From Candidatus Asgardarchaeum abyssi (GTDB lineage Archaea > Asgardarchaeota > Asgardarchaeia > Asgardarchaeales > Asgardarchaeaceae): a DNA stretch of 29,067 bases. The stretch lies in NCBI GenBank assembly GCA_040225955.1, contig JBECUL010000024.1:1-29067 (forward strand), read 5' to 3'. The notes beneath the pieces were generated by a model, which was not told the DNA's origin, made no database searches, and saw only the letters and a list, made by a program, of their open reading frames with translations. Position 1 is the first letter of the stretch; each line of letters opens with the position of its first letter. This document shows, piece after piece, positions 2,892 to 28,509 of this stretch. Position numbers and translations under genes: made by a program.

Positions 2892-3022
2892 GAGCAAGTT
2901 ATTGGTCTTGACCCCGTTCAGGGTAAACCACAAGCCCACATCACATTGCCCTTTCGGTGCTTTATTGCCACCACATTCAGGTATTACCTTAAATGATCAA
3001 AATATTTAACTGTTTCAGAGGG
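2892..3022 (-). mobile_element. Truncated second copy of the IS607-like mini-element
   Basis: Near-identical to 725-866 (gagcaagt-attggtcttgaccccgttcagggtaaaccacaagcccacatcacattgccc...aaaatatttaact-tttc-gaggg), with a short internal deletion and lacking the 646-724 part. Confidence 0.85.
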
Positions 3023-3106
3023 CATGATATTATGATTTTTGAGTATTTAGTACACCTAGAAAGATTTATAATAGCATTTTTTGTAACGATTATTAAGGTG
3101 AAAATA

Positions 3107-3976
3107 ATGGAATCCGCTAGGGAAGATACCATCATTGAGTTCATAAAGAAGTTACCAGAGGTACTTAGTAAGCATCCTGAACTTAAAAGAACATTAATGG
3201 ATGCCCTTGGAATCCCAGAAAACATAGGGGAAAGTCTTCAAGCCATATTACTCGAACTTAAGAAACTTAGGGAGGACTTCAATAAACAAATACTGGAACT
3301 GAGAAAAACTCATCAAGATGACATGAAACACGTATTGAGCGAAATAGAAAGAGTATGGAGTGAAATAGAAAAATTAAGAAATGACTATAACAGACAATTT
3401 GAGGCTTTTCAGAAGCGGATGGATCAGTTCGAAGAGCACTTGAAAAAACTTGACACGCGAATAGATCAGTTCGAAGAGCACTTGAAAAAACTTGACACGC
3501 GAATGGATCAGTTCGAGGAACACTTGAAAAAACTTGACACGCGAATGGATCAGTTCGAGGAGCACTTGAAAAAACTTGAGAGAGCAGTTAATTCATTAAG
3601 TTAACGAGTAACATCGCTTGGTGCGAGATGGGGATATGACAATGAGAATGCTGTAAGGAATGCAATAAAGGGGCTGTTAGAAGAGGACTTTGGAGTGAGA
3701 GTTGAGAAGTGGGAGTACTTTGACGAAGAAGGTTTCGTATACTGGAGGCCCAGCACTGTTGAGGTAGATGTGGTAGTTAAGGATGCAAAGCATATTCTTA
3801 TAGAGATAAAATCGCATGTGACGAAAAATGACGTGGCAATATTTTTGAAAAAAAGTGAATTGTACAGAAGAGTAACAGGAGTAGAACCAGAGCTTATGAT
3901 AGTTACACCTTACATAGAACCTACGGCTGAGGCCTATGCAAAGGACAATAAGATAAGGGTATATACAAAGGTTTGA
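3107..3976 (+). pseudogene. Coiled-coil + PD-(D/E)XK nuclease-fold protein (archaeal DUF3782/DUF1626-like) with an in-frame TAA at 3602-3604
   Basis: Likely start ATG 3107 after GGTGA. The frame continues past the stop as SLS*RVTSLGARWGYDNENAVRNAIKGLLEEDFGVRVEKWEYFDEEG... into ORF 3695..3976, with VEVDVVV...LIEIKS catalytic motifs. LGARWG is typical of this family. Confidence 0.82.
3419..3579 (+). repeat. Coding tandem repeat, 42-bp unit x ~3.8 (MDQFEEHLKKLDTR, two heptads per unit)
   Basis: Units start at 3419, 3461, 3503 and 3545: atggatcagttcgaagagcacttgaaaaaacttgacacgcga with few substitutions. Confidence 0.95.
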
Positions 3977-4324: not shown

Positions 4325-5794
4325 TCATATTCCGATGTGTTTTGATTTTCTTGGTCTTATTTGAGCGATAACAGGTGCTTTTAGTGCTATTCCGCTTACT
4401 ATTCCAACTCCATTTGGGAGGAAAGGAACTCTTTGTAAGTCAGAGATCACAGAGTAGCTTATATAAGGAGATATATAATCCAAATCTGTTTTACTATCGA
4501 TTCTGAGAATTATTTTTGTTCCACATTGACTAATTACGTCTTTGTCGAGACCTACAATTCTCTGGCTTGTCAAGCATAGGCCAATTCCGAACTTTCTCCC
4601 CTCTCTGGCTATTTTCCGCATCATGCTCTTACTGTAGCTTTCTTCGTCTTGAGGGGCAAATCTATGGCTTTCCTCAACCACTACCATTAGAGGGGGGATT
4701 ATTTGTTTCTTTCTTGCCTTAAATAATATATCAAGCAGCACACCGACTAAACTTATTCTAATTTTTTCTTCAATATCTTCACTTAGATCGACAATTGTGA
4801 GTCTACCAGGTGAAACTAATTCCTCTATCTTTGGAGGCGTACCAATAATTCCAAGCTCGCGAATTAGTTGCAATTTCCTTTTTATAGTAAATACCGTTCT
4901 TGACGCAAATTTCCACTCCGACGCCACTTTATCAACACTTTCAATGACATTGTCTATAGTAATTCGCATCTTTTCTTTCTTTAGGTTCTGAAATACCAAG
5001 AAAAGCAAATCATATTGTGTTTCAGTGGCTCCCAACATTTCTGCAAATGAGTCTGCGTTAAGCCAATCTAAACTTATTCTTAATGTCTTTGACCCGGGGT
5101 AGGATGCGAAAATAGAATATCTGATAATATCATATGACTTAGGTTCTAATCCCCATTTTTCTAATAAGCTTCCTTCCTCATAGTTTGGTGTGTTAAATCC
5201 ATGATATTCTCCATGAGTGTCTATTACAACAACTGGATAGTTGTTTTCAAGTAACTCTTCAATAATCACACCAACTGTATAGCTTTTTCCACTTCCCGTT
5301 GCACCCAGAACTGCAATATGATGTTTTATTGTTCTCTTGATATCCAAAACTATGTCAATGTTATTATTCCCATACATCTTACCCAAATAAATTCCTTTTT
5401 CTGGAAGCTTGAGAAATTGTTTTAAAAGGTCACTAGAAGCCAAATAGACAGTATCGCCGGGTTCTGGAGCGTCATTAGGTGGAGAAATTTGCCCATCTTC
5501 TATTATCCCAATTATTTGAACTGTTGCAGCCCTCCATCGGCCTATATCAACAGGATATCTGGCGTATAGCGGCATATCTCTTTTAAGATGATCCTTGATA
5601 AAAGTCGGATCTTGGAATAACTCATTTATAGAGTGCAACCTTATAATTCTCCCCAATATTATTCTTGACCCTAACGGAACCTCTACAAACTCACCAACCT
5701 TAACATCTGCATCATCATCGAGCTGAAAATTGAACTGAAGATGAGTAGGACCAGTTCTATCTGATAATATAACTCCTAATCTTTTAGCCTTCAT
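4325..5794 (-). CDS. herA: HerA/FtsK-family ATPase (HAS barrel + helicase-like domain)
   Basis: N-terminal barrel (VKVGEFVEV...ILGRI, PEPGDTVYLA), Walker A HIAVLGATGSGKS, VVVIDTHGEY, Walker B VVVEESHRFAP, IAREGRKFGIGLCLTSQR. Overlaps the upstream gene by 11 bp. Confidence 0.93.
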   Translation of the reverse strand: MKAKRLGVILSDRTGPTHLQFNFQLDDDADVKVGEFVEVPLGSRIILGRIIRLHSINELFQDPTFIKDHLKRDMPLYARYPVDIGRWRAATVQIIGIIEDGQISPPNDAPEPGDTVYLASSDLLKQFLKLPEKGIYLGKMYGNNNIDIVLDIKRTIKHHIAVLGATGSGKSYTVGVIIEELLENNYPVVVIDTHGEYHGFNTPNYEEGSLLEKWGLEPKSYDIIRYSIFASYPGSKTLRISLDWLNADSFAEMLGATETQYDLLFLVFQNLKKEKMRITIDNVIESVDKVASEWKFASRTVFTIKRKLQLIRELGIIGTPPKIEELVSPGRLTIVDLSEDIEEKIRISLVGVLLDILFKARKKQIIPPLMVVVEESHRFAPQDEESYSKSMMRKIAREGRKFGIGLCLTSQRIVGLDKDVISQCGTKIILRIDSKTDLDYISPYISYSVISDLQRVPFLPNGVGIVSGIALKAPVIAQIRPRKSKHIGI

Positions 5795-7235
5795 CAGATT
5801 CCTCCCCGAATAGAATTCTATCCCTTCTTATTTCATACTCTTCTATATAGGATCTAAGAGCACCGTGTATTGCCATTTCAATATTTCGTTTCAAAAACAT
5901 TAGATTGTTCTTTGCTAATATTTGGGCCGTTCCAGCTATACTAGGTCCTGATAGTACGGATCGATCAGGGGCTGGAAGACTTAATGAATATAAAGTGTCT
6001 AATACTCTCTCTTGGTCCTCAAGTGGAGAATCTGTTATCATCTCTACTTTTAATACGAAATTATGCCGTTTTATGTAAAACTCATACCAGTTACTTATTG
6101 GAGGTCGGCCTCTTTCTGTCTTTCTTTTAACGGGGCATGTAGCCTCCCCATCATATAATATTCCGAGCATTAAATTGAGATCACTTGTTTCTCCTATTTT
6201 CATACGTTTAACAGTATTCAATATTCGAATAATATAATTATCATGCGGTACAACGCTAACTCCCACCAAAAGCACATCTTTCTTCCTTGAAAGCTCTAAT
6301 AATCTCTTAAAAAGAGTATGTACCCTATCTCTTAATTCCATGAGATGTCTGCTGTACACAATAAATCCATGCGGCACAAGAGATCCATTTCTGAATAATA
6401 TTCTAAATTTATCACCATATTCTTTTATGGCCTCATAATCAGCACTCAAGTGCTGATATTCAACAAGGTAACGAGCTGCTATCTTTCTCCCAGACTCTAA
6501 AAGTTCTGGGAAATCACTCGTCATTTCATAAAATGGATCACCAGGAAGAAAAGGCTCCTTGCCTTTATATGTTCTCAAATCCGGTCTTATTATGCTTTTA
6601 GATCGATCTCTATCTAAGACATTTCTGCTAAAGTATCCAACATAATTCGCTGCTGAGAGGAAAACTATTGACATCGTCATTATATCTCTATATCTATAGT
6701 TCCCTAAGGTATACGCGGATGCACTTCCAGAAAACCAGACATTATCCAAAAATAAATCCCTAGCTCTCCTTTCTAAAATAAATTTATCTCCAACAAATCC
6801 CCATCTTTCAAGCTCACTATCGATTCTAAGATTTCTTAATTCATCACGAAGTTTACCAGAAAGCAAATAATCCATGTCAACCCTTTTTAGAATACTTTTT
6901 ATTTTCTCATTTATGCTTCCTAAATGCGCTAATTCAGCAACTCTTACTGGGTCTATAAAATCCTCTAATGTAATCATAGGCGTTGGTTCTAGTACGTTAT
7001 TCATCATAACTTGGTAAAGACGTCGCTGGTTCACGCTATAACGTCCACTTCCTTCATACTCAAGAACGCCTAATGTGGTTAAAATCTTTAAATAATCCCT
7101 GATAGATCTATCTGTTAAAGAAGTTTTTTCGGTTAATTCCTTTGGAGTAACATGTCCCTTTCTTTGCTGAATTTCCAAAATTATATTTAAAAGAGCTGTT
7201 AACCTTACACGGATAGTTGAGCTTGTCCGCCCCAA
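5784..7235 (-). CDS. N-terminal winged-helix domain fused to a NurA-like domain with degenerate catalytic motifs
   Basis: HTH TPKELTEKTSLTDRSIRDYLKILTTLGVLEYEGSGRYSV. NurA-like segments WFSGSASA, ILFRNGSLVP, LLVGVS, FYIKR...VLKVEM, SGPSIAGTAQILAK. Translationally coupled to herA, as nurA normally is. Confidence 0.75.
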   Translation of the reverse strand: MGRTSSTIRVRLTALLNIILEIQQRKGHVTPKELTEKTSLTDRSIRDYLKILTTLGVLEYEGSGRYSVNQRRLYQVMMNNVLEPTPMITLEDFIDPVRVAELAHLGSINEKIKSILKRVDMDYLLSGKLRDELRNLRIDSELERWGFVGDKFILERRARDLFLDNVWFSGSASAYTLGNYRYRDIMTMSIVFLSAANYVGYFSRNVLDRDRSKSIIRPDLRTYKGKEPFLPGDPFYEMTSDFPELLESGRKIAARYLVEYQHLSADYEAIKEYGDKFRILFRNGSLVPHGFIVYSRHLMELRDRVHTLFKRLLELSRKKDVLLVGVSVVPHDNYIIRILNTVKRMKIGETSDLNLMLGILYDGEATCPVKRKTERGRPPISNWYEFYIKRHNFVLKVEMITDSPLEDQERVLDTLYSLSLPAPDRSVLSGPSIAGTAQILAKNNLMFLKRNIEMAIHGALRSYIEEYEIRRDRILFGEESDEG

Positions 7236-7378: not shown

Positions 7379-7774
7379 TTACGAGTACAAATCCATTTTT
7401 AACTGAATGTCTTGTATCTGACCCAACGCAAAAAGAATCAGTTTATTATACAAATTCTTATCTCTAATTAGTATCGGCAAGCCATACATTAATATCTTAT
7501 ACTGCAATTTTGGAAAAACTTCATCCAGCGGTATGAGATCTATAGGAATATCTATAGCTCTTTCTAACCTATCACCTAGGAGTAGAATTTCTTTTAAACT
7601 AAGACGCGGATAAGCATAAATAGCTATATCTATATCACGAACCTCTCTTCTACGCAACGCAGACCCAAAAATAATGGCTATTTTCACTCTATTGTCTTTC
7701 ACCAATATTTGTTTTAATTTGGGTACTATCCTATTAAGGTCAATATTATAGTAGACAATACTCATTTTACTCAC
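7379..7774 (-). CDS. mntA: Minimal nucleotidyltransferase (MNT) antitoxin of a HEPN/MNT pair
   Basis: AIIFGSALRRREVRDIDIAIY (GS...DxD), IDLIPL, ILMYGLPI; adjacent to a DUF86 HEPN gene. Confidence 0.88.
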   Translation of the reverse strand: MSKMSIVYYNIDLNRIVPKLKQILVKDNRVKIAIIFGSALRRREVRDIDIAIYAYPRLSLKEILLLGDRLERAIDIPIDLIPLDEVFPKLQYKILMYGLPILIRDKNLYNKLILFALGQIQDIQLKMDLYS

Positions 7775-8134
7775 CTTTTATGTTTTTTAATAGCTTTTCT
7801 ACACACTCAAAATCATTTTTAATCGAAACATAGATTTTGTAGTCATCTACTATCCAATACCTGTGGATGATCATGTTCCTCAATCTAACTAACGCGACTA
7901 GGTCATCCACACATTTCAGACCTAATTTTTCAGCAACAAATCTTACAGTATCAACATATGATTTAGGAACAAAATCGTATCTCTCTTTCGCAATGTAAAT
8001 ACAGAGAGATATTAGCGATTCAACCAATAATATAATGTTATATCTGATGGAGTATTTTTCTTCGATATATAACTCACTAAAAGGCTTAGATGTTAGTCTA
8101 AGAGCTCATTAATAGCCTCTTCGGCTTCAGCTAC
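7767..8134 (-). pseudogene. hepT: DUF86/HepT-like HEPN ribonuclease toxin, 5'-truncated and frameshifted
   Basis: HEPN motif RNMIIHRY plus PKSYVD. Family-like sequence extends upstream of the 8027 TTG (RLTSKPFSELYIEEKYSIRYNIILLVESL), shifts frame near 8101 to VAEAEEAINEL, and is preceded by a stop with no start codon. Confidence 0.78.
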
Positions 8135-10582: not shown

Positions 10583-11140
10583 TATATATTAAATTAATAT
10601 TATTATTAATTATTAATATTTATTTATATTTATAATATTTATTATTTTTTCAGAAATTTTGCCGTAATCTACACGCTTCCACCCTCATACTCGCTTCACC
10701 AATCGCTATAAGCCAGTAGCTCCCATCACTATCGCTTCTAGACGCATCAACGCCATATGACTCAACCATGAAAGATATAAACCGAAGCTTCTCAACGTTG
10801 GACTCACCAGCATTCGCCGTAGTAATTAAGAAAAATTTTGTCCATATAGTTGCTTTGTTGAACAATTCAATGAATGGTTGCGTAATGTTATAATAATATC
10901 GCCGATAAATGTGTTATATGCGATATCATAATAACTTGCTCTAAATTCCGATTTCATAACTTCAATATAACATTGTTTTGGTCAACAAAGCACCATATAG
11001 TGAGGTGTGTTATAATATTCATCATCATACCCTTTTTAATCACCCATTCTCTGATAGAGAGATGATAATCTGGTACATTTCTGTGTACATGAAAATACTT
11101 ATATTTGTATCACAATATTGTTTACATAAGGTGTGTTACG

Positions 11141-11359
11141 ATGAGTTCCACTTTTAGTATAAGAATCTCTAAAAAGTTAAAGGAGGAAATGAAGAAGTAT
11201 TCAAAAGTTGATTGGGCAAATGAAATCAGAAAGTACATTCAGAAAAAAATAAGGGAATTAAAGTTAGAAGAGATTCTTACTAAGGCGAAAAGTTTAAGGC
11301 AGCAAATGAAAGTGGAAATAAATCACGTAGAACTTATTAGAGAGGATAGAGAGAGATGA
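11141..11359 (+). CDS. vapB: Ribbon-helix-helix antitoxin (VapB-like)
   Basis: MSSTFSIRISKKLKEEMKKYSKVDWANEIRKYI...ELIREDRER; ATG 11141 follows an AGGTG RBS; ATGA overlap with the PIN gene. Confidence 0.85.
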   Translation: MSSTFSIRISKKLKEEMKKYSKVDWANEIRKYIQKKIRELKLEEILTKAKSLRQQMKVEINHVELIREDRER

Positions 11360-11775
11360 AAATTGTTTTAGATTCAAGCATCATTGCAGCCTTGTTCTTT
11401 AAAGATCCTTTTTCAGAAGCTGCCGAGAAATCTCTGAAACGGTATGATGAATATTATACTGTTGATTTTGCAGCGGTTGAAATTGCTAATGTAGCTTGGA
11501 AACGAGTGACTTTGTTTAATGAGAGTAGAAAAATTATTGAAGAAGCATTAGATGATGCAATAAACTTCATAGAAACGTTATGTTGTGTTGTTTCTTCTTA
11601 TAAAATATATAGAAATGCTTTTAACATTGGTATTGCTACAAAGATTCCTATTTATGATGCTCTTTTTCTTGCCCTTGCAAACATTTTAAACTCTAAGCTA
11701 CTAACATGTGATACTAAGTTAAAAAACAGTTTAAGAAAAACAAAATATTTTAAGTTGCTGGAATATCCCACATAG
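11356..11775 (+). CDS. vapC: PIN-domain toxin (VapC)
   Basis: IVLDSS, AVEIANV, IYDALFLALA, LLTCDTKL: the acidic PIN residues are present. Confidence 0.92.
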   Translation: MKIVLDSSIIAALFFKDPFSEAAEKSLKRYDEYYTVDFAAVEIANVAWKRVTLFNESRKIIEEALDDAINFIETLCCVVSSYKIYRNAFNIGIATKIPIYDALFLALANILNSKLLTCDTKLKNSLRKTKYFKLLEYPT

Positions 11776-12137: not shown

Positions 12138-13589
12138 TTAAGAATTGAGAATAATTAAGTGCTTAGATAATCGATTGATAGCATCTCTTAGTGCAATATA
12201 TTGAGGCCCAGAACCTAATGGTATTTTTATAAGGCCTACGGTTCCGTTTATTTCTTCTTTTATCGAGGCTTCGAATAAGAGGCTGTTATAATAAATTTGG
12301 TTTGCGGAGACAATGTAGTACTTTACGTTCAGCTTAATATTGCTAAATTTTGCTTCAATTTTTGGCTTTAGCTCGTTTAGCTTATTCTCCAAAATGAGCC
12401 TATTAATGTAGGTTAAAGGGGAGTAATACGCGATAATTACGACATCAACTGTCTTCTTAATTTTGAGTATTGAATGTATAAATTCAAGAATAGCAAGAAT
12501 GTTTGCAAGGCTAAATTGCTCTGTAACCACAACTGGAACTACAATTTTTGAGATAGTACCTATGTTCAAGTCATGGTTTGGCCTATTTAAAAATGAAATA
12601 AAAACACTGAAACCGCCAATAAGAATATTTTGAAGATCGCAGAAGAAATTGTTAAGGGATGTTATAGCTGGATTTAAACGGATATTATCATTTTTGTCCT
12701 CAGAAAGTCTACGGAGGATTTGCTTAATGAAATCATTATAAATTAAAAGTTTAAATCTATTAACGCTTTCACTATTCCTTTGATAATAGCCTATTAGTTC
12801 TTCTTCTGGAAAGAGTTTTTCTACCACATTCATATATTGTTTTATATCGAAATCAGCATCTTTAGTTAGGTTTAGCAGTTTTCTGAAAAGTTCATCAATA
12901 TATCCAAACCTCGAGTCTATATCTTCTAGTTCATCACAGTATTTAAAGATAGTATCATGGAGTATAGAATATGCCGACTCTCCAGGTAATGCTGTTAACT
13001 TGTAATAGGAGTTGATTAAAACTTCAATAAAACTAATTATTATAGCGAAAACATTGCTAAGATATCTTTCTCTTTCATCTTCATTGATTCTTAAAAGTAA
13101 AAGCGAGAGATACTGATTAAAGATAGCAACTTTTAAAGATGTAGATAATCTGTGCACCCCCATCAATAATGCAATAAATGTATCGACATCAATAGAAATA
13201 TAAGAACACTTAGAAATATTCTCTTTAAGCACAGAAGGTATCACTTTCCTATATGTTTCATGAGCTATGGTCATCCAGCCTGTATTATGAGGTACAACCT
13301 TTTTAGTGATAATCCTCGCAACAGTAAAATCGAAAGGAAAGATTTGAGAAGAACTTAAAAAACAAAATAAGTTTTGAAGTGCCCTAGAGAAATCTTCAAC
13401 TGGAGGATAATAAATGACTTTCATGATCCTTTTGCCGATACCTTCAGGGAAGAGATACTCAAGAAATAGCGAATCTAAGGTATCAAATAAATGATTACTC
13501 TTTTTAACATTAACTAAACCCATTGTGAGAAGAGATATGTCTTTCGCTTTCAAATTTTCAACTTTAAAAAGTATTGAACTAATTTTCAC
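12138..13589 (-). CDS. Hypothetical CRISPR-linked protein, 483 aa; C-terminal CARF-like Rossmann domain suspected
   Basis: Long ORF overlapping its upstream partner (GTGA). The C-terminal ~140 aa alternate beta/alpha (IVVPVVVTEQ; VVIIAYYSPLT; VKYYIVS; LIKIPLGSGPQYIAL), as in CARF folds. The fold call is inference. Confidence 0.55.
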   Translation of the reverse strand: MKISSILFKVENLKAKDISLLTMGLVNVKKSNHLFDTLDSLFLEYLFPEGIGKRIMKVIYYPPVEDFSRALQNLFCFLSSSQIFPFDFTVARIITKKVVPHNTGWMTIAHETYRKVIPSVLKENISKCSYISIDVDTFIALLMGVHRLSTSLKVAIFNQYLSLLLLRINEDERERYLSNVFAIIISFIEVLINSYYKLTALPGESAYSILHDTIFKYCDELEDIDSRFGYIDELFRKLLNLTKDADFDIKQYMNVVEKLFPEEELIGYYQRNSESVNRFKLLIYNDFIKQILRRLSEDKNDNIRLNPAITSLNNFFCDLQNILIGGFSVFISFLNRPNHDLNIGTISKIVVPVVVTEQFSLANILAILEFIHSILKIKKTVDVVIIAYYSPLTYINRLILENKLNELKPKIEAKFSNIKLNVKYYIVSANQIYYNSLLFEASIKEEINGTVGLIKIPLGSGPQYIALRDAINRLSKHLIILNS

Positions 13590-15043
13590 TTACCCCCTTT
13601 TATAGTAAATAATTTGAAAAACGGTACTTCAAAAATAGATGCCCAGTCATGTTTCTTATTGATTGTTGATTCTAAATCTGTCAGACTGAGCAAGTATCGT
13701 CCGTACATTACAAATTTTCGGTTTATTTTAGTTTGTCCTTTTAGTAATTTGCCTTGCATAACAAAGTTTGTCTCAGGTACAATTATGAAATAGATGGAAT
13801 CGTCATGTAATATTAACCTACTTGAAAAGAAGCTGATTATTTTCTCAAGAAAATCCTTCTTAAAATCTTGCAAGACAAAGAATAGCAGATGCTTTCCATC
13901 AGCAATCTGATTTAGGAATTCATTGCTTTTCTCAAGATCACTATCTGCAGAGAAATACCAAATATTAATGTTTTTGCTTTTACATGAAATAGTATTTCTC
14001 AATTTCGTATAAATTTTCGATGATATTTTTATTTTTTCAAGTTCTGGATTGGTAGCTACCAGTATATTGTACTTAAAATCATTGCTGTAATTAAGAGTTT
14101 GTTTGGTTAGATTTACAAACGATCTTACAATATTGACAAAGGATTCACACATGAATCTCATACGGTTTTCTTGCCTTACCAATTGAGGTAACAATAAAAT
14201 TGTAAAATATTTTTCCTCAGAGTTTGTACATGTTTTAGTGAATTCAAAAGCCACTTTTTGAAGCAAAATTGCTAAGGATATGCTTGATATAAGCTCTAGA
14301 GTCTTCTTATTAGGCCATTTACGCTCAATTAAATTGTTTAATTTTTTAATTCTTTTTAGGTGAATCTTGCTGAAATTATTTATCTTATTAAGCAAGTGCC
14401 TAAGCGCTAGCTCGGAGGTTATAAATTTTCCTAATCCATTTGGAATATTATGATCGTTGTTTTCGGATAAACAATACGCTTTTCTAATAACCTTAATAGA
14501 TTCTCGTATATCCTCAAAGAACTTATTAGCAAATGGGAAAGATGTTGTTAAAATCAACCAGTTGACAAAATTATTGATTTCTGCAATAGGCAATTCACAA
14601 AGCAAAGAAAACGCAGTTTCCTTATCAATGTCAGGCGGCACTATGTCATCTAAAATACCCCGGATCATCTCAGAGTAGCATTCATTCAAAAAATCTATTG
14701 CATTTTTAGGTATGAACAAGGAGAGAGGACCCATTGAAAAGTCATCAGTTACATTTCTATTTTTTGTATAAAGAACAGGGACGTCTGATGGGAAAATTAT
14801 ATCTCTCAAAGGCTTGCTTAGATATTCTTTACGATTAGACACGTCTTCTACAAATAGTGGAGTATATATGTTGTCTCCATGTTTTTGTATGTTTTCTACT
14901 CTTTCATTTGAATTAATTCGTAGCACTAAAAAATAATCATATTCTCTTATAGCATCAGTTGATGTGTATGTCAAATCAGGGTAAAACACTTGAAATGATT
15001 TTTCAATATATTCAACATTACAATTCTTTTTTTGTTTATTCAT
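13586..15043 (-). CDS. Hypothetical CRISPR-linked protein, 485 aa; C-terminal Rossmann/CARF-like domain possible
   Basis: Long ORF divergent from cas10 with GAGGG RBS; helical middle, then FTILLLPQ / NILVATNP / INIWYFS / LLFFVLQD / IYFIIVPE beta-strand pattern. Confidence 0.5.
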   Translation of the reverse strand: MNKQKKNCNVEYIEKSFQVFYPDLTYTSTDAIREYDYFLVLRINSNERVENIQKHGDNIYTPLFVEDVSNRKEYLSKPLRDIIFPSDVPVLYTKNRNVTDDFSMGPLSLFIPKNAIDFLNECYSEMIRGILDDIVPPDIDKETAFSLLCELPIAEINNFVNWLILTTSFPFANKFFEDIRESIKVIRKAYCLSENNDHNIPNGLGKFITSELALRHLLNKINNFSKIHLKRIKKLNNLIERKWPNKKTLELISSISLAILLQKVAFEFTKTCTNSEEKYFTILLLPQLVRQENRMRFMCESFVNIVRSFVNLTKQTLNYSNDFKYNILVATNPELEKIKISSKIYTKLRNTISCKSKNINIWYFSADSDLEKSNEFLNQIADGKHLLFFVLQDFKKDFLEKIISFFSSRLILHDDSIYFIIVPETNFVMQGKLLKGQTKINRKFVMYGRYLLSLTDLESTINKKHDWASIFEVPFFKLFTIKGGK

Positions 15044-15321
15044 AAGTAACCCTCAATAAAGAGCATCTGTTGTTATGTTTAATCTCTCTATAATATATAC
15101 TTAAGGATATTCACACTTCATAATTAACGTTATGAAAGTTCCTTAAAAGCAAAGACGGGCGCTTCCATTATAGAGCTAAGCAGTCAAGATTCATTAATAA
15201 TAATGATTTTTAATTTTTCAAATTTAAAAATAAAAATCGTTACTAATATTGTAGAAAAATTCATCAAAACTCAGTTTTAGAAAAAAGTTAGAAAAAAATA
15301 GATTGAAAAATATTCTTTAGT

Positions 15322-15385
15322 GAAAAATTTAAATACTCACCTATAGTAAGAATAATTTTACATAATCAGCTTAGTTTCTTGGTGA
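15322..15385 (+). promoter_or_regulatory. Archaeal BRE/TATA promoter and RBS of the cas10 operon
   Basis: gaaaaa (15322-15327) + tttaaata (15328-15335); GGTGA at 15381-15385 ahead of ATG 15390. Confidence 0.5.
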
Positions 15386-15389
15386 TTAT

Positions 15390-18098
15390 ATGAACGATGA
15401 AATATCATTATATGTTAATCCAATACTCTTTGAGATTAAAAAGACTATAATAAATGATGATTTTGTAGAAAGAATAGTAAAGTTCCTAAAAAGTAGAAAG
15501 TTTGATAATATTCTCACAAGTTATGATAAAGTAATCAGAAGTGAAGAAATGAACGAACTTTTAAAAGATATTTCACCAAAAAATACAGTATTACTTGTTT
15601 TTCAAAACATTATGGATTACGTTGATTTAACTAACCTTTTTGTTTATGTTTTTATTCATGAATTGGAAAGAAAAAATAAGCAGTTATTGGAGAAAAGTGA
15701 TTTTTTCAAAAGTTTTAAGATGAACAACATAAATGAATTTATAAATTTTATTAGACTTGTCGTTTTTCTAAAAGCAATTTTAAAACGATCAAAAAAACTT
15801 TACAACGGGCTAATTACAGTGCTGAAAGAAAAAGATTTAGAATACGTGGAAAAAATAGTTAACGCGATAGAGAAGATTAATGTTAGTTCTCAATTTAGTG
15901 AAGACATCGTTTGTCGAATAATAAATCTTTCATTTAATCTAGCAGAAAAAGGCTTTATTCCTTTTTTCAGTTTTATTATAGAAGGTTTTAGAAATAATAA
16001 CCAAGAAAGTTATCCAAAAAATTCGTTTTTTCATGCCTTTCGATGGCTTTTTAATGAATTAACCACATATGCAGACTTATTTGAAGATAAAGATACACTC
16101 ATTTTGATATCAGAAGCTTTTGAGAAAAAAGATCTGAACGTACTATATGAACTTAAGTTGGTCCCTAGGAATATAACATTTAGCACTATTGAAGAAATCA
16201 GCAATACACTAATCCCAGGCATATGGAACAACTATAAAGATATATTGGAAAATACGAGAATTTCAGTGATTTTGATTGATCTAAAAGGCATACAGAAATT
16301 TATAACACGATCAGAATATCGTTTTTACTTGGCAGGAGCTAGTTCATATATTGAAACTACTCTTAGAGAAATTAATGAAGAGCTGATTAATAAAGGAATC
16401 CCACCTGAATGCATAATTTTTAGTACTGGAGGAGGAATTTTATTAGTAGTCCCAGAAAATAAGGCGACCGATGCGTATTCAATCATTTCAAATAACGTGA
16501 AAAGGCGATTTGGTACGGCAGTAGGTATCAGAACCAACTACTCTAACTTTAAAAATAAATATCTTTTTCATCCGATTGAATTAATATATGGTCCAATTTA
16601 TTCGTGGCAATCACAAAATAACCTACCAATGAGGGGATTTGGTGGAATTTTTAATTATATTTTAAAAAATCTTGAAGATAAAACGCTAAATGAGCGTTTT
16701 GCAGTTCATAATTTAACATATAATGATATATGCGCTGTATGTTTTAATAAAAAAGGTGAAAATCGAAATAATCCAGAAGACGCTCAAATAATAGAAAAAG
16801 TAGCAGGACCCGAATTCAAGGGAAAGAAAATATGCGATATTTGTTTTAATGTAATTAAGCATGAGTATGATAAAAAATATACTCTTAGAGAAAAGGGTTA
16901 TAGCGGATTAATTTCCATAACTGTTAAGGGCAATAAAGTTATTGCATCGGTAAGTGACTACATAAAAGAAAAGACTAAAATTCCACTTTTTGAGGTTCTG
17001 CATAAGATTACAGAGATTATTAATTCTAATGAGAAACTAAATAAAAAAATATACATAGCTCTTAGTGATATCGAATCCAATAAAATTTCATTTAAATACG
17101 TAAGAACATGGGATGAGCTTGGTAAGCTTTCTTATATGCTAAGCAAAATAGAAGAGGTTACTCATCCAGAAATTGCATTGATAAAAGGTGATGGTGATAA
17201 TTTTGGCACCGTAAAAGCATTAATGTCATCAATAGCAACATATAAACAAATCTCAAGGCTATTTTCAGAGATTTCTATAGAGGGTGTTGCTTACGGTTTT
17301 GCAAACGTAATATTAATGAGTTTAAATGAATATGCAGAAAACTACTTTAAATACATTGACACCATATATTTGCCATTTGATGTGCTATATATTGGTGGCG
17401 ATGATCTAACCTTGTTACTTGATGCAGGATTCGTATTCAGTTTTATAAAATATCTTCATGAATTTTTAATTCAAAGAGTAGGGTTGCAAAAAACAGGTGA
17501 TTATCATAAAGATAGAGATAATATCTCAGCGTTAAGTCCTATAAATTTAGGTTATTCTCTTGGAATATCAATATTTCCGAATAATATGCCTCTATACATG
17601 GCCCTTTATACGACCAATGAACTAGAATCAATGGCTAAGAAAAAATCTAAAAAGAGAAACATAAAACATGGTGGAACTATTACAGTTGCATTTCAGAGAT
17701 TTATTGGTATTCCATCCAAGCATATCATTCATGATATCTATGGACCTAAAAATGGTAACATCAAGCTAACAGCATGGCCAAGAAGTTATGACGAGCTATT
17801 TGATAGACGAAAAGGTATCTTACCGAAAATAAAACAACTTTTAGCTCATGATATAAGTGCAAATAAAATTTTACGTTTCATAAAGGTAGATGATATAGAT
17901 GCTGACGAAATAAAGCTTAAAATAAATTACGCTGCTGCACGAATGAGCAAAAGCAGGCAAGATGAAGCAAGCTTATTAAGAGAATTAGCACGTTTTTCTT
18001 TTATAATATTAGATGATATTCTATCATTTCAACTTAGAGATATTGTAGATATTATGAGAACAGTTCATGAAAATGAAAGATTACTAGCTGTTAGTTAA
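15390..18098 (+). CDS. cas10: Type III CRISPR large subunit Cas10 (intact cyclase Palm, degenerate HD)
   Basis: ILIDLKGIQKFI...LAGASSYIE, FSTGGGILLVV, Zn finger CAVC...CDIC, LIKGDGDNFG, LYIGGDDLTLL. No HD dyad in the N-terminal region. Confidence 0.95.
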   Translation: MNDEISLYVNPILFEIKKTIINDDFVERIVKFLKSRKFDNILTSYDKVIRSEEMNELLKDISPKNTVLLVFQNIMDYVDLTNLFVYVFIHELERKNKQLLEKSDFFKSFKMNNINEFINFIRLVVFLKAILKRSKKLYNGLITVLKEKDLEYVEKIVNAIEKINVSSQFSEDIVCRIINLSFNLAEKGFIPFFSFIIEGFRNNNQESYPKNSFFHAFRWLFNELTTYADLFEDKDTLILISEAFEKKDLNVLYELKLVPRNITFSTIEEISNTLIPGIWNNYKDILENTRISVILIDLKGIQKFITRSEYRFYLAGASSYIETTLREINEELINKGIPPECIIFSTGGGILLVVPENKATDAYSIISNNVKRRFGTAVGIRTNYSNFKNKYLFHPIELIYGPIYSWQSQNNLPMRGFGGIFNYILKNLEDKTLNERFAVHNLTYNDICAVCFNKKGENRNNPEDAQIIEKVAGPEFKGKKICDICFNVIKHEYDKKYTLREKGYSGLISITVKGNKVIASVSDYIKEKTKIPLFEVLHKITEIINSNEKLNKKIYIALSDIESNKISFKYVRTWDELGKLSYMLSKIEEVTHPEIALIKGDGDNFGTVKALMSSIATYKQISRLFSEISIEGVAYGFANVILMSLNEYAENYFKYIDTIYLPFDVLYIGGDDLTLLLDAGFVFSFIKYLHEFLIQRVGLQKTGDYHKDRDNISALSPINLGYSLGISIFPNNMPLYMALYTTNELESMAKKKSKKRNIKHGGTITVAFQRFIGIPSKHIIHDIYGPKNGNIKLTAWPRSYDELFDRRKGILPKIKQLLAHDISANKILRFIKVDDIDADEIKLKINYAAARMSKSRQDEASLLRELARFSFIILDDILSFQLRDIVDIMRTVHENERLLAVS

Positions 18099-18109
18099 GA
18101 GGTGTTATA

Positions 18110-18769
18110 ATGAGTTCTACCATGATATATAATAAACCAATCGAAGTTATAATAGAAATTAAAGGTTTTTTCCGAATTGGTGGTGAAACTGATTTTAGAA
18201 GTGCCTTTTTACCACTTGCAAGAAATAAAAGTAGTAAAATACCTATATCATTAGTAAACATGACATCAAGCTTTAAAGGAATTCTAAGAAAATCTGCAAT
18301 GAGATTTATTAATAGCAAGATTCTAAGCCAAAATAATGAACTCAAAAACATGTTAACAAACTCTCTTTTTAAACTATTTGGAAAATCTGGAAAAATGCAA
18401 GGAACAATAATATTTGAATTTGTAGGATTTGAAGATACCGTACTAAGGATCGATATAAGACCAGGAATTAAAATAAATCCTGTATTTGGAAGCATAGAAG
18501 AGAAGCACATTTTCTTTTACGAATATGTATATAATAGTTATAATTGTCTAAAGAATATTAAGCTAAAATTTAGAATGACTCCTCTCTACCCTCTAAATGA
18601 ATATGATTGCATCCTATTATTTACAGCAATTAATGGTTTACGATATGATAACATAGGAGGGTTTAATTCTAGAGGCGGAGGGTTTATTGAAAATATTTTG
18701 GTTGATGAGAATTTTACTAATAGAGCCAAAAAGATCGTTAATAAACTTAAGGTGTTGAAAAATGTTTGA
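18110..18769 (+). CDS. cas7: Cas7-group RAMP (Csm3-like)
   Basis: FRIGG, SSFKGILRK, LFG, RPGIKIN...IFFYE, G-loop IGGFNSRGGG. Confidence 0.85.
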   Translation: MSSTMIYNKPIEVIIEIKGFFRIGGETDFRSAFLPLARNKSSKIPISLVNMTSSFKGILRKSAMRFINSKILSQNNELKNMLTNSLFKLFGKSGKMQGTIIFEFVGFEDTVLRIDIRPGIKINPVFGSIEEKHIFFYEYVYNSYNCLKNIKLKFRMTPLYPLNEYDCILLFTAINGLRYDNIGGFNSRGGGFIENILVDENFTNRAKKIVNKLKVLKNV

Positions 18770-20072
18770 TGAAGAAGATATCATTGCAGTTTTTAAATTA
18801 AAAACATTAACACCATTGGTTATTACAGCAAAAAGAGGAGCTGGAAATTTTATAAAAACATTAGATATTATACCCGCATCCTCACTAATTGGAGCTCTTT
18901 GTAGAGCAATAGTTTTAACTAATATGGATAATAAAAGAGGAAAATGTGCAGAATTAAAAGATACTGTAACGCTGCCAGATTGCGATAATTGTTCATTGAA
19001 TGATAAATGCTTGTATCCAAAACTCTGGAGAAACCAATTTCTTTCTAACAAAAACAATGAGAAAATAATAGTAAGCTGGGCATATCCTATTAATAAGAGT
19101 ATAGAATCGAATATTAATAATATATTGTATGCTCCTGTAATTCCTAGTCTAAAATCGTTGATTAAACCAAGGATTCGTATGAGTGATGCAAAGGAGATAT
19201 ACGATAGCTTGATATTTTATGGCCTTTTTGAAATAGGGAGAAAATACGGTATAACTAGATTTATTGACATTTTAGGACCTAAAGTTAAAAATAGAATTCC
19301 AACAAAACCTATGTCAGCTACTGTTTATTATGATGAAAAATCTAAAAGAATACAAGAAATTAACATAAATACTACGCAAATTACACATATTACAATTTCC
19401 GATATCTTAAAAACTGTTGAGACTGGAAATGATGGTGAGAAAGGAGAATTATATCATTATGAGGCAATTAGTGAAAATAATATATTCTATTTCTACATTA
19501 TTTCAAAAAAGAGATATATCGATCTGCTAATGAAGCACATGAAAGATCATCCAATACAAATAGGTGCGGCAAAATCACGAGGATACGGCTTTGTTGAAAT
19601 TGAAAAGGTAATAGAAACTACAGTTAATAAATATATTTCAGAAAGATTAAAGAAAATACAAGAATATAATTCTAAATTTGAATCATATATAACAAGTCAA
19701 AGAAACTTTTCTAATAAACTTTTTCTGACAATTACAGGATTGTCACCACTTAAGATAGATAATAAAACAGTACAAGAGGCTCTTTTATTTAGGATTAACC
19801 AAAAAGTAGAGATTTTGAAATTTTTCTTTACGCTGGATACTTTTTTAAGAATCGATATATCAAAGCCACAAATAACATTTAATTTAACACCAATAGTGAA
19901 TGCAGGATACTCAGTTTTTATTGAAATCACCACGAAAGAAGATGAAAAAGAGAAAGAGAATATTATAAGACAACTTTTAGAATGGGAGATAAAAATACCT
20001 TATGAGAGTTGGTTTGGCTGGTACTTTATAAATCATCCGATACATTTTAGTTATCTTGAGGAGGTGATATAA
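18762..20072 (+). CDS. cas5: Cas5-group RAMP (Csx10-like, extended), with a Cys-rich insertion
   Basis: LKTLTPLVI, DIIPASSLIGAL, C...CDNC...C cluster, THITI...LYHYEAI, IGAAKSRGYGFVEI, then a second degenerate RRM-like half. Position cas10-cas7-cas5 is typical of III-D. Confidence 0.75.
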   Translation: MFDEEDIIAVFKLKTLTPLVITAKRGAGNFIKTLDIIPASSLIGALCRAIVLTNMDNKRGKCAELKDTVTLPDCDNCSLNDKCLYPKLWRNQFLSNKNNEKIIVSWAYPINKSIESNINNILYAPVIPSLKSLIKPRIRMSDAKEIYDSLIFYGLFEIGRKYGITRFIDILGPKVKNRIPTKPMSATVYYDEKSKRIQEININTTQITHITISDILKTVETGNDGEKGELYHYEAISENNIFYFYIISKKRYIDLLMKHMKDHPIQIGAAKSRGYGFVEIEKVIETTVNKYISERLKKIQEYNSKFESYITSQRNFSNKLFLTITGLSPLKIDNKTVQEALLFRINQKVEILKFFFTLDTFLRIDISKPQITFNLTPIVNAGYSVFIEITTKEDEKEKENIIRQLLEWEIKIPYESWFGWYFINHPIHFSYLEEVI

Positions 20073-20434
20073 TGTCTCAACAAAATGTAATTAAGTCAAA
20101 ATCAGATTTAATTAATTTAGCTAGACGCATTTTAAGAAATGTTGAATGTGTTAAAAGAGAAGAATCGGATGCCGTAAGTTCAAGCTTTGTCAGAAAAGTT
20201 CTGGAAATTTCTCAAAAGGTAGATAGCATTGAGGAATTTAAACTTTATGTAGGATACTTCGTCTCAAAAAATGCTAAATCCCCCGACTCGGGGTTATACA
20301 CGTTCCAGCATAATTTAGAAAATGCTCTCAAGCAAATCAAATATGATTTGAATACATTAAGAACTCTTATAGAATATGTTGTGATGCTACATACGATAAA
20401 AGCAAAGGAGGAAGAATACAGTGGTTGGTGGTAA
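20072..20434 (+). CDS. cas11: Small subunit Cas11 (Csm2-like)
   Basis: 120-aa all-helical protein inside the operon; VSSSFVRKVLE...EFKLYVGY...LIEYVVMLH pattern. Confidence 0.7.
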   Translation: MSQQNVIKSKSDLINLARRILRNVECVKREESDAVSSSFVRKVLEISQKVDSIEEFKLYVGYFVSKNAKSPDSGLYTFQHNLENALKQIKYDLNTLRTLIEYVVMLHTIKAKEEEYSGWW

Positions 20435-21218
20435 TAATGCTTTGTATAAATGTTTAAAAGCTAGGTGGAGAGTGCGATGCAAGATTGAACCTCAAGAATC
20501 ATTATATGTAGGTGTTGGAAGATCTGATTTTTCAATAGCTGCAGTAGAGTTACCATTTGCAAAAATATTTGACCAAAACAGTAATTCATGGATACCTGTG
20601 ATTCCTGGGTCTGGATTAAAAGGGGCTTTTAGAGCTTATTTCTCTAGATTAATTAACTCTCTTAGCATTGATATATTAAATGAATTTGGTTTCAAGGGTA
20701 CATTAATGACTGATGAAACAAATTTTGAAAGAGATTTTGTGAAAACCAAAGGAGTGCAAGAAAAACTTAAAAAATTGAAAAGTGCACCAACAATTTTCAA
20801 ACTCTTCGGCATTTCTGGTTTTGCGTCTCTTATAAAGTTTACTGATGCTTTACCAGAAAGATCCCTAGAGAAACATGGGCTTATCAGAAGAACTCACGTC
20901 AGAATTGATATAAATACAGATAAAGCTGTTCAAAATGCACTTTTTGATTTGGAAGCAATCGTAAAAGGTTACACTTTCACATTCGACATAATCTATGATG
21001 AGCTTGATGATGAAATTTTAAAAGATGCAAATGAACTTTTTAATCTTATGATTAAGCTTCTGAAAAGAGGTTTAGAAATTCATATTGGTGGCATGAAATC
21101 CCGTGGATATGGCTTAGTAAAAATTACTGCAGTTTTAATTGAAAGATTTACACCCAAAGATCTATTTTTTGGTAATAAACCTCAAATCGTTTATCAAAAA
21201 GATGAAGGAGGAATTTAA
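20421..21218 (+). CDS. cas7: Cas7-group RAMP (Csm3/Csx7-like)
   Basis: LYVG, IPVIPGSGLKGAFR, LFG, IKFTDA, RTHVRID, LFDLEAI, IGGMKSRGYGLV. Confidence 0.92.
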   Translation: MVGGNNALYKCLKARWRVRCKIEPQESLYVGVGRSDFSIAAVELPFAKIFDQNSNSWIPVIPGSGLKGAFRAYFSRLINSLSIDILNEFGFKGTLMTDETNFERDFVKTKGVQEKLKKLKSAPTIFKLFGISGFASLIKFTDALPERSLEKHGLIRRTHVRIDINTDKAVQNALFDLEAIVKGYTFTFDIIYDELDDEILKDANELFNLMIKLLKRGLEIHIGGMKSRGYGLVKITAVLIERFTPKDLFFGNKPQIVYQKDEGGI

Positions 21219-21220
21219 TA

Positions 21221-22090
21221 ATGTCACGGACTATAGGGATATTTAAGAAATATCTTTTAACATATAAATTATTTGTTGATATTCAAACAATATCACCAGT
21301 TAGAATTGGATCTTCAAAAGCTGTAATTTCATTAATAGAACCAGATTCGCCAGTTGTAAAAATTCGATTAAAAAATGGGAAAGTAATACCGATTATTCCC
21401 GGTTCATCACTCAAAGGCTTTTTTAGAGCCACCTTCTCAAGAATAATTTCCAAAAGACAAGACCTTTCTAATGTAGAAAACGAAATTTTTGGTGATCCAA
21501 GAATACATGCTTCAAGAATATTTTTTCATGACGTTTTTCCAAAATCAGAACAAAGCTTTAGGCTGATTGTTAGAAAACATATAAGAATTGATAAAAGAAG
21601 CTCTGCTGTTGCACCACATGGATTGTTTGAAGTTGAAGCAATCGCAGAAAATTCACTATTTAGTGGAGTGCTTTTTACCGCAAGAAATTTGAGTTTGGAC
21701 TTTTTGGGCGTTTTGAAACCAATTATTACACTTACGAATATGGGGATCTTTAGAATCGGAGGATATAAGAGCCGAGGATACGGTGAGATTTCAATACAAC
21801 CAATAGCGTTAGAAGTAACAATCTTTGGTCAGAATACTAAGGATTTACTAAACGGCATTACATTAAGTAATAAAGAAGTTTTTAGTTTAAGTAATATAGA
21901 CATAACCATTAAACTTATTAAAGAAAATAATTCACTATTTCTTACAATACCACAAGTTTCTGAATTTAGACTACCTATTGATATATCATATGACATGCAA
22001 CCATTTGCAATAATCTTAAAACTCGGGAGGGATGAAACTCTACAATTAATTGATAAAATGAACGAAATTCTAAAGATGTCAGGAGGGTAA
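21221..22090 (+). CDS. cas7: Cas7-group RAMP (Csm3-like)
   Basis: SPVRIGS...PDSPVVK, IPIIPGSSLKGFFR, IFG, SRIFFHD, RKHIRID, LFEVEAI, IGGYKSRGYGEI. Confidence 0.92.
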   Translation: MSRTIGIFKKYLLTYKLFVDIQTISPVRIGSSKAVISLIEPDSPVVKIRLKNGKVIPIIPGSSLKGFFRATFSRIISKRQDLSNVENEIFGDPRIHASRIFFHDVFPKSEQSFRLIVRKHIRIDKRSSAVAPHGLFEVEAIAENSLFSGVLFTARNLSLDFLGVLKPIITLTNMGIFRIGGYKSRGYGEISIQPIALEVTIFGQNTKDLLNGITLSNKEVFSLSNIDITIKLIKENNSLFLTIPQVSEFRLPIDISYDMQPFAIILKLGRDETLQLIDKMNEILKMSGG

Positions 22091-22095
22091 TAAGG

Positions 22096-22950
22096 ATGTC
22101 TTCTGGTACATATTATGAATATATTCCAGTAACCAATGTTCATAGAGTAAGAATACCAGATAGTATATTCTCTAGTCGCTCTAAAATAGAAAACATATAC
22201 AAAATATCGATGAAATATAAAGCAGTATCTCGAGTACATATAGGATCAGGTAAAAAAGATTTTTTGGAAAAAGAGAATAAAGTATTGTTCAAACATATAC
22301 GTGACGCTAGGGGTTATTTGTTTTTACCTGCTTCTTCAATAAAAGGTGTTGTATCAACAAACTTTTTGGCTATATGTGGTTCTGCTGAGCTTACGAGTGA
22401 GGTTTTTGGAACAACCGCTGATAAAGCTACTATTTCAAAAGTTTATTTCTATAATATATATCCACAAGGTAGAAACTTACTCGAGATTGTTGAAATCGAA
22501 AAACTCTGGTCACCAAAACCTCCAAAGAATAATGTAGTTAAAATTTACATAAGTAAAGCTCCTGAAACTGATATTGCAGGGAAAATTGAAACCCTAAAAG
22601 TTGGAACTATTTTTCAGTTTAAGCTATTCGGAATAAATTTGAGTGAAATAGAATTAGGCACTCTTCTATTATCACTCGGATATAACCCAAGTTCGAAAAA
22701 TAGAAAATTTCTTAAAATCGGATATGCAAAACCAAAGGCATTTGGCCTACTACAACCATTGGATGAAACACTTGTTATTGAAAAGTTAGAAATTACTGAG
22801 AAATTTGAAGTACAACATAAGATTTTAGAAAGAAAGAAAATTTTAGAAATTATATCAAATACCAAAAAACATATCAATAATGAACTATCAAAACTTGGAT
22901 TTAAAGATACTGTGGATAATCGTTTTAATATAGTTTTTGGGTGGAAATAA
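22096..22950 (+). CDS. cas7: Cas7-group RAMP (Csm5-like terminal subunit)
   Basis: VHIGSG, LPASSIKGVV, VFG, SKVYF, LWSPK, ELGTLLLSLG, KIGYAKPKAFG. Confidence 0.85.
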   Translation: MSSGTYYEYIPVTNVHRVRIPDSIFSSRSKIENIYKISMKYKAVSRVHIGSGKKDFLEKENKVLFKHIRDARGYLFLPASSIKGVVSTNFLAICGSAELTSEVFGTTADKATISKVYFYNIYPQGRNLLEIVEIEKLWSPKPPKNNVVKIYISKAPETDIAGKIETLKVGTIFQFKLFGINLSEIELGTLLLSLGYNPSSKNRKFLKIGYAKPKAFGLLQPLDETLVIEKLEITEKFEVQHKILERKKILEIISNTKKHINNELSKLGFKDTVDNRFNIVFGWK

Positions 22951-23357
22951 TGAAAACCATAAGTAAGGATTTTTTAATTCGAAAAGCAAAAAATTTTGTG
23001 TATAGACTGGAAAACATAGCACGAAATTCACATAAAGCGTTTATCGAACCAACAGGCACACCAAAAAAACCACGATATATAAAGATATTATCACAAGCAC
23101 TAAAAGATTTTTCTTATGATTTTATTATGGGAAATGAAAAACAAGAGTCATTTAGCAAATATATATTGACTGCAATTTATACAACACAAATTCCCAATAA
23201 AAAAGATATCTCAATTATGGACATAAAAAGGTTTATAAATGATTGCCAGAAGGCTTTTCAAAGTGAAATTAGAGAATTGAAGCATAGAGAAGATTTATTA
23301 AATTTTTTAAATTTTTCATTCCTGCTTTTAGAAGTACAGCGGAGAAGAACTTACTAA
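22950..23357 (+). CDS. Small helical protein closing the cas operon; possible second Cas11-like subunit
   Basis: TAATG overlap with the preceding gene and GGGTGG RBS favour ATG 22950 (ORF track uses GTG 22941). Helical pattern ESFSKYI...KRFINDC...LLNFLNFSFLLLE loosely parallels the 120-aa Cas11. Confidence 0.5.
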   Translation: MKTISKDFLIRKAKNFVYRLENIARNSHKAFIEPTGTPKKPRYIKILSQALKDFSYDFIMGNEKQESFSKYILTAIYTTQIPNKKDISIMDIKRFINDCQKAFQSEIRELKHREDLLNFLNFSFLLLEVQRRRTY

Positions 23358-28067: not shown

Positions 28068-28509
28068 ACTTAATATCCTCTTGCTGATGATCACTAATAT
28101 AACGACTAGAAAACTAACTATTTAAGCTTCACCACTCAAAATCTACATGCATCTAACACTTTGAAGTCAACCCTATAATAAAATTCACTCAATTCACAAG
28201 TAATATTCTTCAAAGAATAATTACGAAAAGTGGACATCTTTATTATCTATTTTATTATTGTTAATATTATTACATTATTTAGTAATATAATTAAGTTAGA
28301 TGAAGATAGAAATTTGATAGGAAGCTAATAATAATTCTCTCTAAATCAAATCACAGCCACTTTTTTGGCCATTCTCCTTATAATTTATCAATTCCATGTA
28401 AATCCCTTCTATAAGTATTTTATACAAGTCACATGGTGGAGCAGATAGACACAGCATGACCAATTAACACCTTCAGTAATTAAGCCGTGATACATATCAA
28501 CTATTGCTT

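Follow-up and report, generated by a model that had tools for sequence, protein, structure and literature searches.

A candidate two-subunit, CARF-containing ancillary effector adjoining a type III-D-like CRISPR system in Candidatus Asgardarchaeum abyssi

The archaeon Candidatus Asgardarchaeum abyssi (assembly GCA_040225955.1, contig JBECUL010000024.1) contains two overlapping genes, here termed A and B, that are transcribed away from the cas10 gene of a type III-D-like CRISPR system. The window refers to the whole stretch of DNA that was analysed, 29,067 nucleotides in length, which is the entire 29-kb contig (G000:C24) of an archaeal metagenome-assembled genome that is 93% complete. On balance, proteins A and B probably assemble into a two-subunit hetero-oligomer that senses cyclic oligoadenylate (cOA) and serves the adjacent type III-D system as an ancillary effector. 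This reading draws on the CARF fold of A, the linkage of the pair to type III genes, the coupling of the two genes, the predicted binding of A to B, the association of relatives with DHH/DHHA1 proteins, and the cyclase motifs of Cas10.

The gene pair

The two genes, their domains, and the spacer that separates them from cas10 are located in the window as follows.

13586..15043, minus strand: gene B, upstream member of the pair, 485 amino acids (P0002), ATG start (open reading frame list, homologue P0004, family alignment)
14774..14998, minus strand: most conserved block of B, residues 16-90, candidate output domain (family alignments)
14405..14590, minus strand: helical segment of B, residues 152-213 (complex-prediction interface, conservation)
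13769..14212, minus strand: Rossmann-like domain of B, residues 278-425 (predicted secondary structure)
13586..13589, minus strand: 4-nt overlap of the B stop and the A start, GTGA (read from the sequence)
12138..13589, minus strand: gene A, downstream member of the pair, 483 amino acids (P0001), GTG start (open reading frame list, homologue P0005, family alignments)
12141..12557, minus strand: CARF domain of A, residues 345-483 (model, VIA-align, Foldseek, motifs)
12255..12425, minus strand: contact surface of A, residues 389-445 within the CARF domain (complex-prediction interface)
15044..15389, no strand: divergent spacer between the pair and cas10, 346 bp, 24% GC (base composition count)

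The TGA stop codon of B and the GTG start codon of A share the tetranucleotide GTGA, and a G-rich run resembling a ribosome-binding site lies just 5' of it; the overlap indicates that the two genes are translationally coupled. A and B are real genes, as the same coupled arrangement recurs on another contig with full-length homologues (37% identical for A and 31% for B). A preliminary description of this DNA had reported two overlapping reading frames of similar size, a 346-bp divergent spacer to cas10, and a common AT-rich composition. The frames of 485 and 483 codons and their 4-nt overlap were confirmed, the spacer measured exactly 346 bp, and the G+C fractions of the A/B genes (0.315 and 0.307) were close to that of cas10 (0.294), with 0.329 for the window.

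Protein A carries a CARF domain

Protein A was modelled by AlphaFold2 with a 2-row alignment, and the model was poor overall. Residues ~345-483 formed an alternating beta/alpha pattern with a predicted local distance difference test score (pLDDT) of 60-80. When the model was compared exhaustively with 48,161 PDB chains by VIA-align, the top 14 chains (Z 12.4-9.3) included 13 proteins with a CARF domain or an ancillary role in type III systems, the remaining one being an uncharacterised Sulfolobus protein. These 14 matches covered residues 347-483, with 104-130 aligned residues and a root-mean-square deviation (rmsd) of 2.4-3.1. The best match was Csm6 (9w3u; Z 12.4, rmsd 2.5, 130 aligned). The CARF domain of A also aligned with Can2 (7bdv and 8bao) and Csa3 (6wxq) at Z 10.5, VC1899 and Card1 at Z 10.3, Cam1 at Z 9.9, Can1 at Z 9.4, Crn1 Sso2081 at Z 9.3, and Csx1-Crn2 at Z 8.7, and unrelated Rossmann folds appeared only below the top 14 chains. 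Foldseek was less sharp than VIA-align in that many CARFs were mixed with USP- and FNR-like folds; its top match was Cam1 (E 3.9e-4), and Can2, Card1, Csm6, and Crn1 were also retrieved. The modelled C-terminus of A is therefore a true CARF fold, which is what the structural check proposed in the preliminary description had been expected to reveal for both proteins.

Within the A family, the motif TEQ(S/T) follows strand 1, Y(S/T)PxTxxN(R/K)L follows strand 2, and a G(S/P) loop, in the form of QG(S/P)L or GSGPQ, follows strand 4. The N-terminal ~340 residues are mostly helical and contain conserved H110, K115, G144, and R147.

Protein B combines an acidic N-terminal domain with a Rossmann-like C-terminus

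In protein B, a conserved acidic domain at the N-terminus is followed by a helical middle and then by a C-terminus that is predicted to be Rossmann-like. The block at residues 16-90 includes FYPDLTY and the invariant residues R33, E34, D36, E66, S69, E73, and D81. These residues are arranged as D36, a hydrophobic strand, a hairpin, a second strand, and E66-x-V68-S69, a pattern that resembles the PD-(D/E)xK core except that the lysine position holds V or I. Judged by its sequence, the block is a candidate catalytic nuclease-like output domain; its assignment as the output of the module is tentative and rather doubtful. The helical segment at residues 152-213 carries the motif AEINNFxNW, in which N158 is invariant.

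A five-strand beta/alpha domain was predicted at residues ~278-425 (pLDDT <55), with polar residues conserved behind strand 1 (Q287) and strand 4 (D393-x-x-K396, conserved as D-Y/F-x-K). In the model these residues occupy places where CARF pockets have motifs, a correspondence that is suggestive only. The C-terminal model, from an overall prediction with pLDDT 35, matched generic Rossmann and class I methyltransferase-like folds with Z up to 9.6 at rmsd 4.0; TYW4, CalS11, and PPM1 were among the best matches (Z up to 8.9, Foldseek E 8e-4). VIA-align of the same pLDDT-35 model returned a single CARF structure (8y75, rank 43, Z 7.2), and no CARF was listed by Foldseek. The CARF nature of the B C-terminus is thus unproven. 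The earlier proposal of CARF-like C-termini in both proteins was upheld for A by VIA-align and Foldseek and was left unsupported for B, for which the same fold check yielded a low-confidence model of generic Rossmann type.

Proteins A and B are predicted to bind each other

The structure of the complex was predicted from our own 9-row alignments of the A and B families, with controls. The A-B pair scored 0.65 (0.67, 0.64, and 0.65 in the individual runs) compared with 0.24 for the best control; 58 of 80 solved complexes attained this mark, as did 2 of 110 mismatched pairs. The pLDDT of the partner was at least 46, and the runs shared at least 27% of their contacts. The confident interface lies between residues 389-445 of A (strand 2/helix 2 and strand 3/helix 3 of the CARF domain, including YYSPLTYxN) and residues 152-213 of B, and in both proteins it coincides with the best-conserved of the non-catalytic motifs. 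We know of no similar complex, so it is unlikely that the score reflects a memorised solved structure. These predictions support the binding of A and B to each other. A heterodimeric sensor with paired CARF-like halves had been suggested previously; the association of the two proteins was recovered in the prediction, but the contact runs from the CARF domain to the helical middle of the partner rather than from CARF to CARF.

Family searches

Neither A nor B matched Pfam, NCBIfam, PADLOC, or PDB sequences when searched as single proteins and as family profiles. The profile search also answered the comparison with Cas accessory families that the preliminary description had proposed, and it placed neither protein in any named family. 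The PDB-sequence profile search with the A family was empty, no Card1_endonuc or other nuclease profile matched A or B, and the literature search found no description of this two-protein module. No feature matches to A or B were present in the ESM Atlas. Its models of both proteins were poor; that of A hinted weakly at Csa3, Card1, and RtcR, and that of B at nothing.

A and B were not similar to each other by BLASTP or hhalign, either as whole proteins or per domain, and hhalign of the A CARF domain against the B Rossmann-like domain gave nothing. Their interpretation as diverged paralogues was dropped because these comparisons found no relationship. The HEPN motif Rx4-6H was absent from A and its homologue P0005, and B and P0004 contained one match each at the non-equivalent positions 48 and 336, so the B family has no conserved HEPN motif; the Csx1_HEPN profile had no match anywhere in the genome. 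No transmembrane segment was detected in A or B, since the most hydrophobic 19-residue windows hold charges and sit in the CARF core. Readings of the pair as HEPN proteins or as membrane proteins were rejected on these grounds, in agreement with the initial impression that both features are lacking, and a helix-turn-helix (HTH) reading was rejected because the family searches of A and B contained no HTH.

Distribution of the pair and its linkage to type III systems

The genes that diverge from the pair in the window are as follows.

15390..18098, plus strand: cas10, 902 amino acids (Pfam Cas10 palm2, NCBIfam Csm1, motif scan)
18110..23357, plus strand: type III-D-like backbone of repeat-associated mysterious proteins (RAMPs), a Csx10-like protein, and small subunits (Pfam and NCBIfam matches)

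The cyclase motifs of Cas10, GDGDNFG (600) and GGDD (669), are intact, and two CxxC pairs are present; the motif scan found no HD motif in the first 300 residues.

Homologues were searched in protein collections of 5.8 billion and 15 billion entries, in which one other full-length pair was found, the remaining hits being fragments of the genes of the window itself. Pattern scans with the A profile gave nothing, and neither did those with the B profile in genome and viral collections. The N-terminal motif of B alone recovered distant pairs from metagenomes. The pair is rare but conserved as a pair, with about eight other loci, and the start and stop codons overlap or abut at the B-A junction in every homologous pair.

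The full-length pair (Logan contig L001) consists of P0004, which is 31% identical to B, and P0005, which is 37% identical to A; the genes overlap by 7 nt. A spacer of 298 bp separates this pair from a divergently oriented type III operon of different gene order, the Cas10 of which is barely alignable to that of the window, yet retains GGDD. Six metagenome loci (L013-L018) contained a B-like gene of 417-425 amino acids, and an A-like gene of 438-470 amino acids was located directly 3' of it wherever the contig reached that far. In L015 and L017, a type I-A cluster and a divergent DHH/DHHA1 gene lie on one flank of the pair and a convergent run of RAMP genes, which was typed as a III-D-like operon in L015, on the other; L014 and L016 have the same DHH and type I-A side, and their contigs end before the type III side. 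The large subunit of L015 (17611-19857, minus strand) keeps GDGDRFG and has AGDD in place of GGDD; it had no Pfam or NCBIfam Cas10 match and aligned to the palm domain of the window Cas10 (E 5e-12).

A second pair is present in the same genome (G000:C19; L022:11219-14646), directly after a complete cmr1-6 operon and on the same strand. Its B protein (P0007, 704 amino acids) has a DHH/DHHA1 region (residues 1-310, DHH motif present) fused N-terminally to the B-like part (hhalign probability 98.8%), and its A-like protein (438 amino acids, hhalign probability 99.5% over the full length) is encoded by a gene that overlaps the P0007 gene by 4 nt. A hidden Markov model search of the six-frame open reading frames of this genome with five domain profiles identified only the window and C19 pairs and one 62-residue fragment on contig C42. 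This frame (G000:C42:4190-4375, plus strand) matched the CARF profile of the A family (E 2.5e-4 against the open reading frames of the genome) and may be what is left of a third copy. Of 400 genomes searched, another one from the phylum, G020, contained the pair: its locus (L005, G020:C52, 4823-8258) encodes DHH, B-like, and A-like genes in a row. This copy is split or frameshifted, with B broken by TAG and A divided into frames of 173 and 273 amino acids, and is either degraded or misassembled.

Apart from the broken G020 copy, type III genes are present at every pair locus that has genuine flanking sequence. The pair adjoins type III genes in the window, L001, C19, L015, and L017, so that the co-occurrence with cas10 on which the preliminary description had proposed to test its idea was observed; three kinds of type III operon are involved, namely III-D, III-B (cmr), and another arrangement. 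The pairs of the window and L001 constitute a subfamily without a DHH gene within reach on their contigs. DHH occurs as a neighbouring gene in L014-L017 and G020, and as a fusion to B in P0007. The DHH/DHHA1 enzyme NrN degrades SAM-AMP and accompanies SAM-AMP systems (PMC10600005), and another such enzyme, MAD, degrades cyclic tetra-adenylate (cA4), as cited in PMC8284326. By analogy with MAD and NrN, the DHH/DHHA1 protein of the relatives is probably an off-switch that removes the signal (PMC8284326, PMC10600005).

Proposed function and comparison with known systems

In the proposed mechanism, the binding of target RNA would lead Cas10, which lacks an HD motif and keeps its cyclase motifs, to make cyclic oligoadenylate. 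The signal would bind the CARF domain of A, possibly jointly with the Rossmann-like domain of B, and the resulting change would be relayed through the contact between the CARF domain of A and the helix of B to switch on the output activity. The N-terminal domain of B, with its invariant acidic cluster resembling the site of a metal-dependent nuclease or phosphoesterase, is the leading candidate for this output. In the relatives, DHH/DHHA1 fused to B or adjoining the pair would clear the signal. A more specific version of this model is possible, although it falls short of being probable: the pair would be a split effector in which sensor A and catalytic subunit B are obligately paired polypeptides, the acidic site lies outside the described families, signalling passes from the CARF domain to a helical domain in place of the customary linkage of CARF and effector within one chain, and the module shuttles between III-B and III-D systems while gaining or losing a DHH off-switch.

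The nearest analogies to A/B are Can1, with its two unlike units, and Cam1, with its C-terminal CARF domain. Can1 of T. thermophilus (6sce) and Can2/Card1 (7bdv, 8bao, and 6wxw) are cA4-activated CARF proteins with PD-(D/E)xK nuclease domains. They share with A/B a type III-linked CARF sensor, to which the CARF domain of A aligns at Z 9.4-10.5, and B has an acidic D...E pattern that recalls PD-(D/E)xK; the two unlike sensor-plus-nuclease-like units joined in Can1 are comparable to an A+B heteromer. Unlike these proteins, A/B consists of two polypeptides, its CARF domain is C-terminal rather than N-terminal, no Card1_endonuc or nuclease profile match accompanies the motif of B, which has no catalytic lysine, and both A and B have a long helical middle, with the predicted contact between CARF and helix instead of between CARF domains. 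Cam1 (8t64-8t66) likewise has a C-terminal CARF domain and was the best Foldseek match of A. The small membrane protein Cam1 has a transmembrane helix at its N-terminus, whereas A and B are ~480 residues each and have no such segment. The CARF-HEPN ribonucleases Csm6 and Csx1 (such as 9w3u, 8pcw, and 8jbc) are also type III ancillary proteins, and Csm6 was the best CARF match of A, but A/B has no conserved HEPN Rx4-6H motif and the domain order is reversed. The NrN and MAD systems resemble the relatives of A/B in that DHH/DHHA1 is fused to B or adjoins the pair; in contrast, the contig of the window pair has no DHH gene, and the known partners of NrN are CorA channels rather than CARF proteins (PMC10600005, PMC8284326).

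Several points weigh against the assignment of A and B as a cOA-sensing effector. CARF sequence profiles of Pfam, NCBIfam, and PADLOC had zero matches to A and its 8 relatives, the loop motifs of A after strands 1 and 4 differ from the canonical CARF ones, and the N-terminal 340 residues of A have pLDDT <50 and no assignable fold. The motif of B lacks the lysine of PD-(D/E)xK, and B, also modelled by AlphaFold2 with a 2-row alignment, reached an overall pLDDT of 35, with ~25 in the N-terminal block. The complex prediction is built on shallow alignments and on a partner whose own fold is uncertain. The G020 pair is situated on a 10-kb contig with no cas genes, the cas10 of that genome being on another contig. 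Furthermore, the A. abyssi genome harbours two further cas10 loci (three cas10 genes) and other CARF proteins, so the A/B pair need not be the only or the main effector.

Among the alternatives, the best surviving one is that the pair controls the signal, as a ring nuclease or sink, or acts as a regulator, with the CARF domain of A binding, and perhaps also cleaving, cOA and B assisting or tuning it. Stand-alone CARF ring nucleases are indeed among the structural matches of A (Crn1 Sso2081 and Csx1-Crn2), relatives are tied to the DHH/DHHA1 class that degrades such signals (PMC8284326, PMC10600005), and the family searches recognised no toxin domain in A or B. This role is nevertheless unlikely: the ~970 residues of two conserved proteins and the invariant acidic cluster of B far exceed the needs of known ring nucleases, and if A degraded the signal, the additional DHH protein of the relatives would be redundant. 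A transcription factor role in particular is unsupported, since neither an HTH nor another type of DNA-binding domain was recognised in A/B.

It is improbable that the pair is an unrelated two-gene cassette, mobile or toxin-antitoxin-like, that lands in defence islands and in which the Rossmann fold of A has no CRISPR function. The great rarity of the family, the abundance of toxin-antitoxin and mobile remnants in the window, and the contig without cas genes in G020 are compatible with such a cassette. However, loci that are independent and highly diverged place the pair directly beside type III operons of three kinds, in one case as the end of a cmr operon, and the fold of A matches CARF domains specifically, well above other Rossmann folds. 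Least probable of all is a module for a signal other than cOA, such as SAM-AMP, in which the SAM portion would be bound by the Rossmann-like domain of B, with the DHH protein of the relatives acting like NrN: the closeness of the B C-terminal model to class I SAM-methyltransferase-like folds (TYW4, CalS11, and PPM1) and the company that DHH/NrN keeps with SAM-AMP systems (PMC10600005) would fit it, but the Z values from a model of pLDDT 35 are typical of any Rossmann fold, A has a CARF domain, the usual sensor of cOA, and neither CorA nor a SAM lyase is present in the window, nor was a SAM-binding motif identified.

Other features of the window

Beyond the III-D-like genes, the window contains cas6 and then a CRISPR array at 28508-29067, with a repeat of ~36 nt (CTTTCAATCCCCATATAGGGGAATTCTTTCTGCAAG). 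Array bases 28508-28769 (262) recur with 100% identity 298 bp further on, up to the contig end, which is either a duplication of a block of spacers or an assembly artefact. Between the III-D operon and cas6 are genes for two unrelated proteins of ~540 amino acids (23403-25031 and 25147-26772, both minus strand). One of them has no family match; the other has a central winged helix, and its match to CasR/Csa3 profiles is confined to their HTH part. They are possible further accessory or regulatory genes.

On the other side of the pair, a winged HTH/NurA-like protein (483 amino acids) overlaps a HerA-type ATPase (489 amino acids) at 4325-7235 on the minus strand, and these two represent another candidate CRISPR-linked module in the window. 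Two toxin-antitoxin-like pairs were observed, comprising a HepT-like protein with an MNT nucleotidyltransferase (7379-8027, minus strand) and a VapC PIN protein with a small partner (11105-11775, plus strand). An open reading frame at 2993-3604 includes a 42-bp tandem repeat of ~4 copies (3332-3579, 95% matches) that encodes a repeated heptad-like peptide. The earlier statement that the window holds no other recognisable effector candidate is only loosely true, given the presence of the HerA pair, HepT/MNT, the VapC PIN protein, and the two ~540-residue proteins.

Significance

Signal-activated ancillary effectors account for a large part of the action of type III CRISPR systems, and every new class of them has brought new biochemistry and tools. 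The A/B module is probably a two-subunit receiver of the CRISPR alarm signal, of a rare and hitherto undescribed kind. It has no family name, its domain order is reversed, two different proteins are needed, and it accompanies three kinds of type III operon in archaeal sequence of Asgard type. Its value is tempered in that it is still of the CARF-based ancillary type. Adjoining a Cas10 with no HD motif, the module presents a new receiver of CRISPR second messengers that lends itself to testing, and perhaps a new output enzyme as well.

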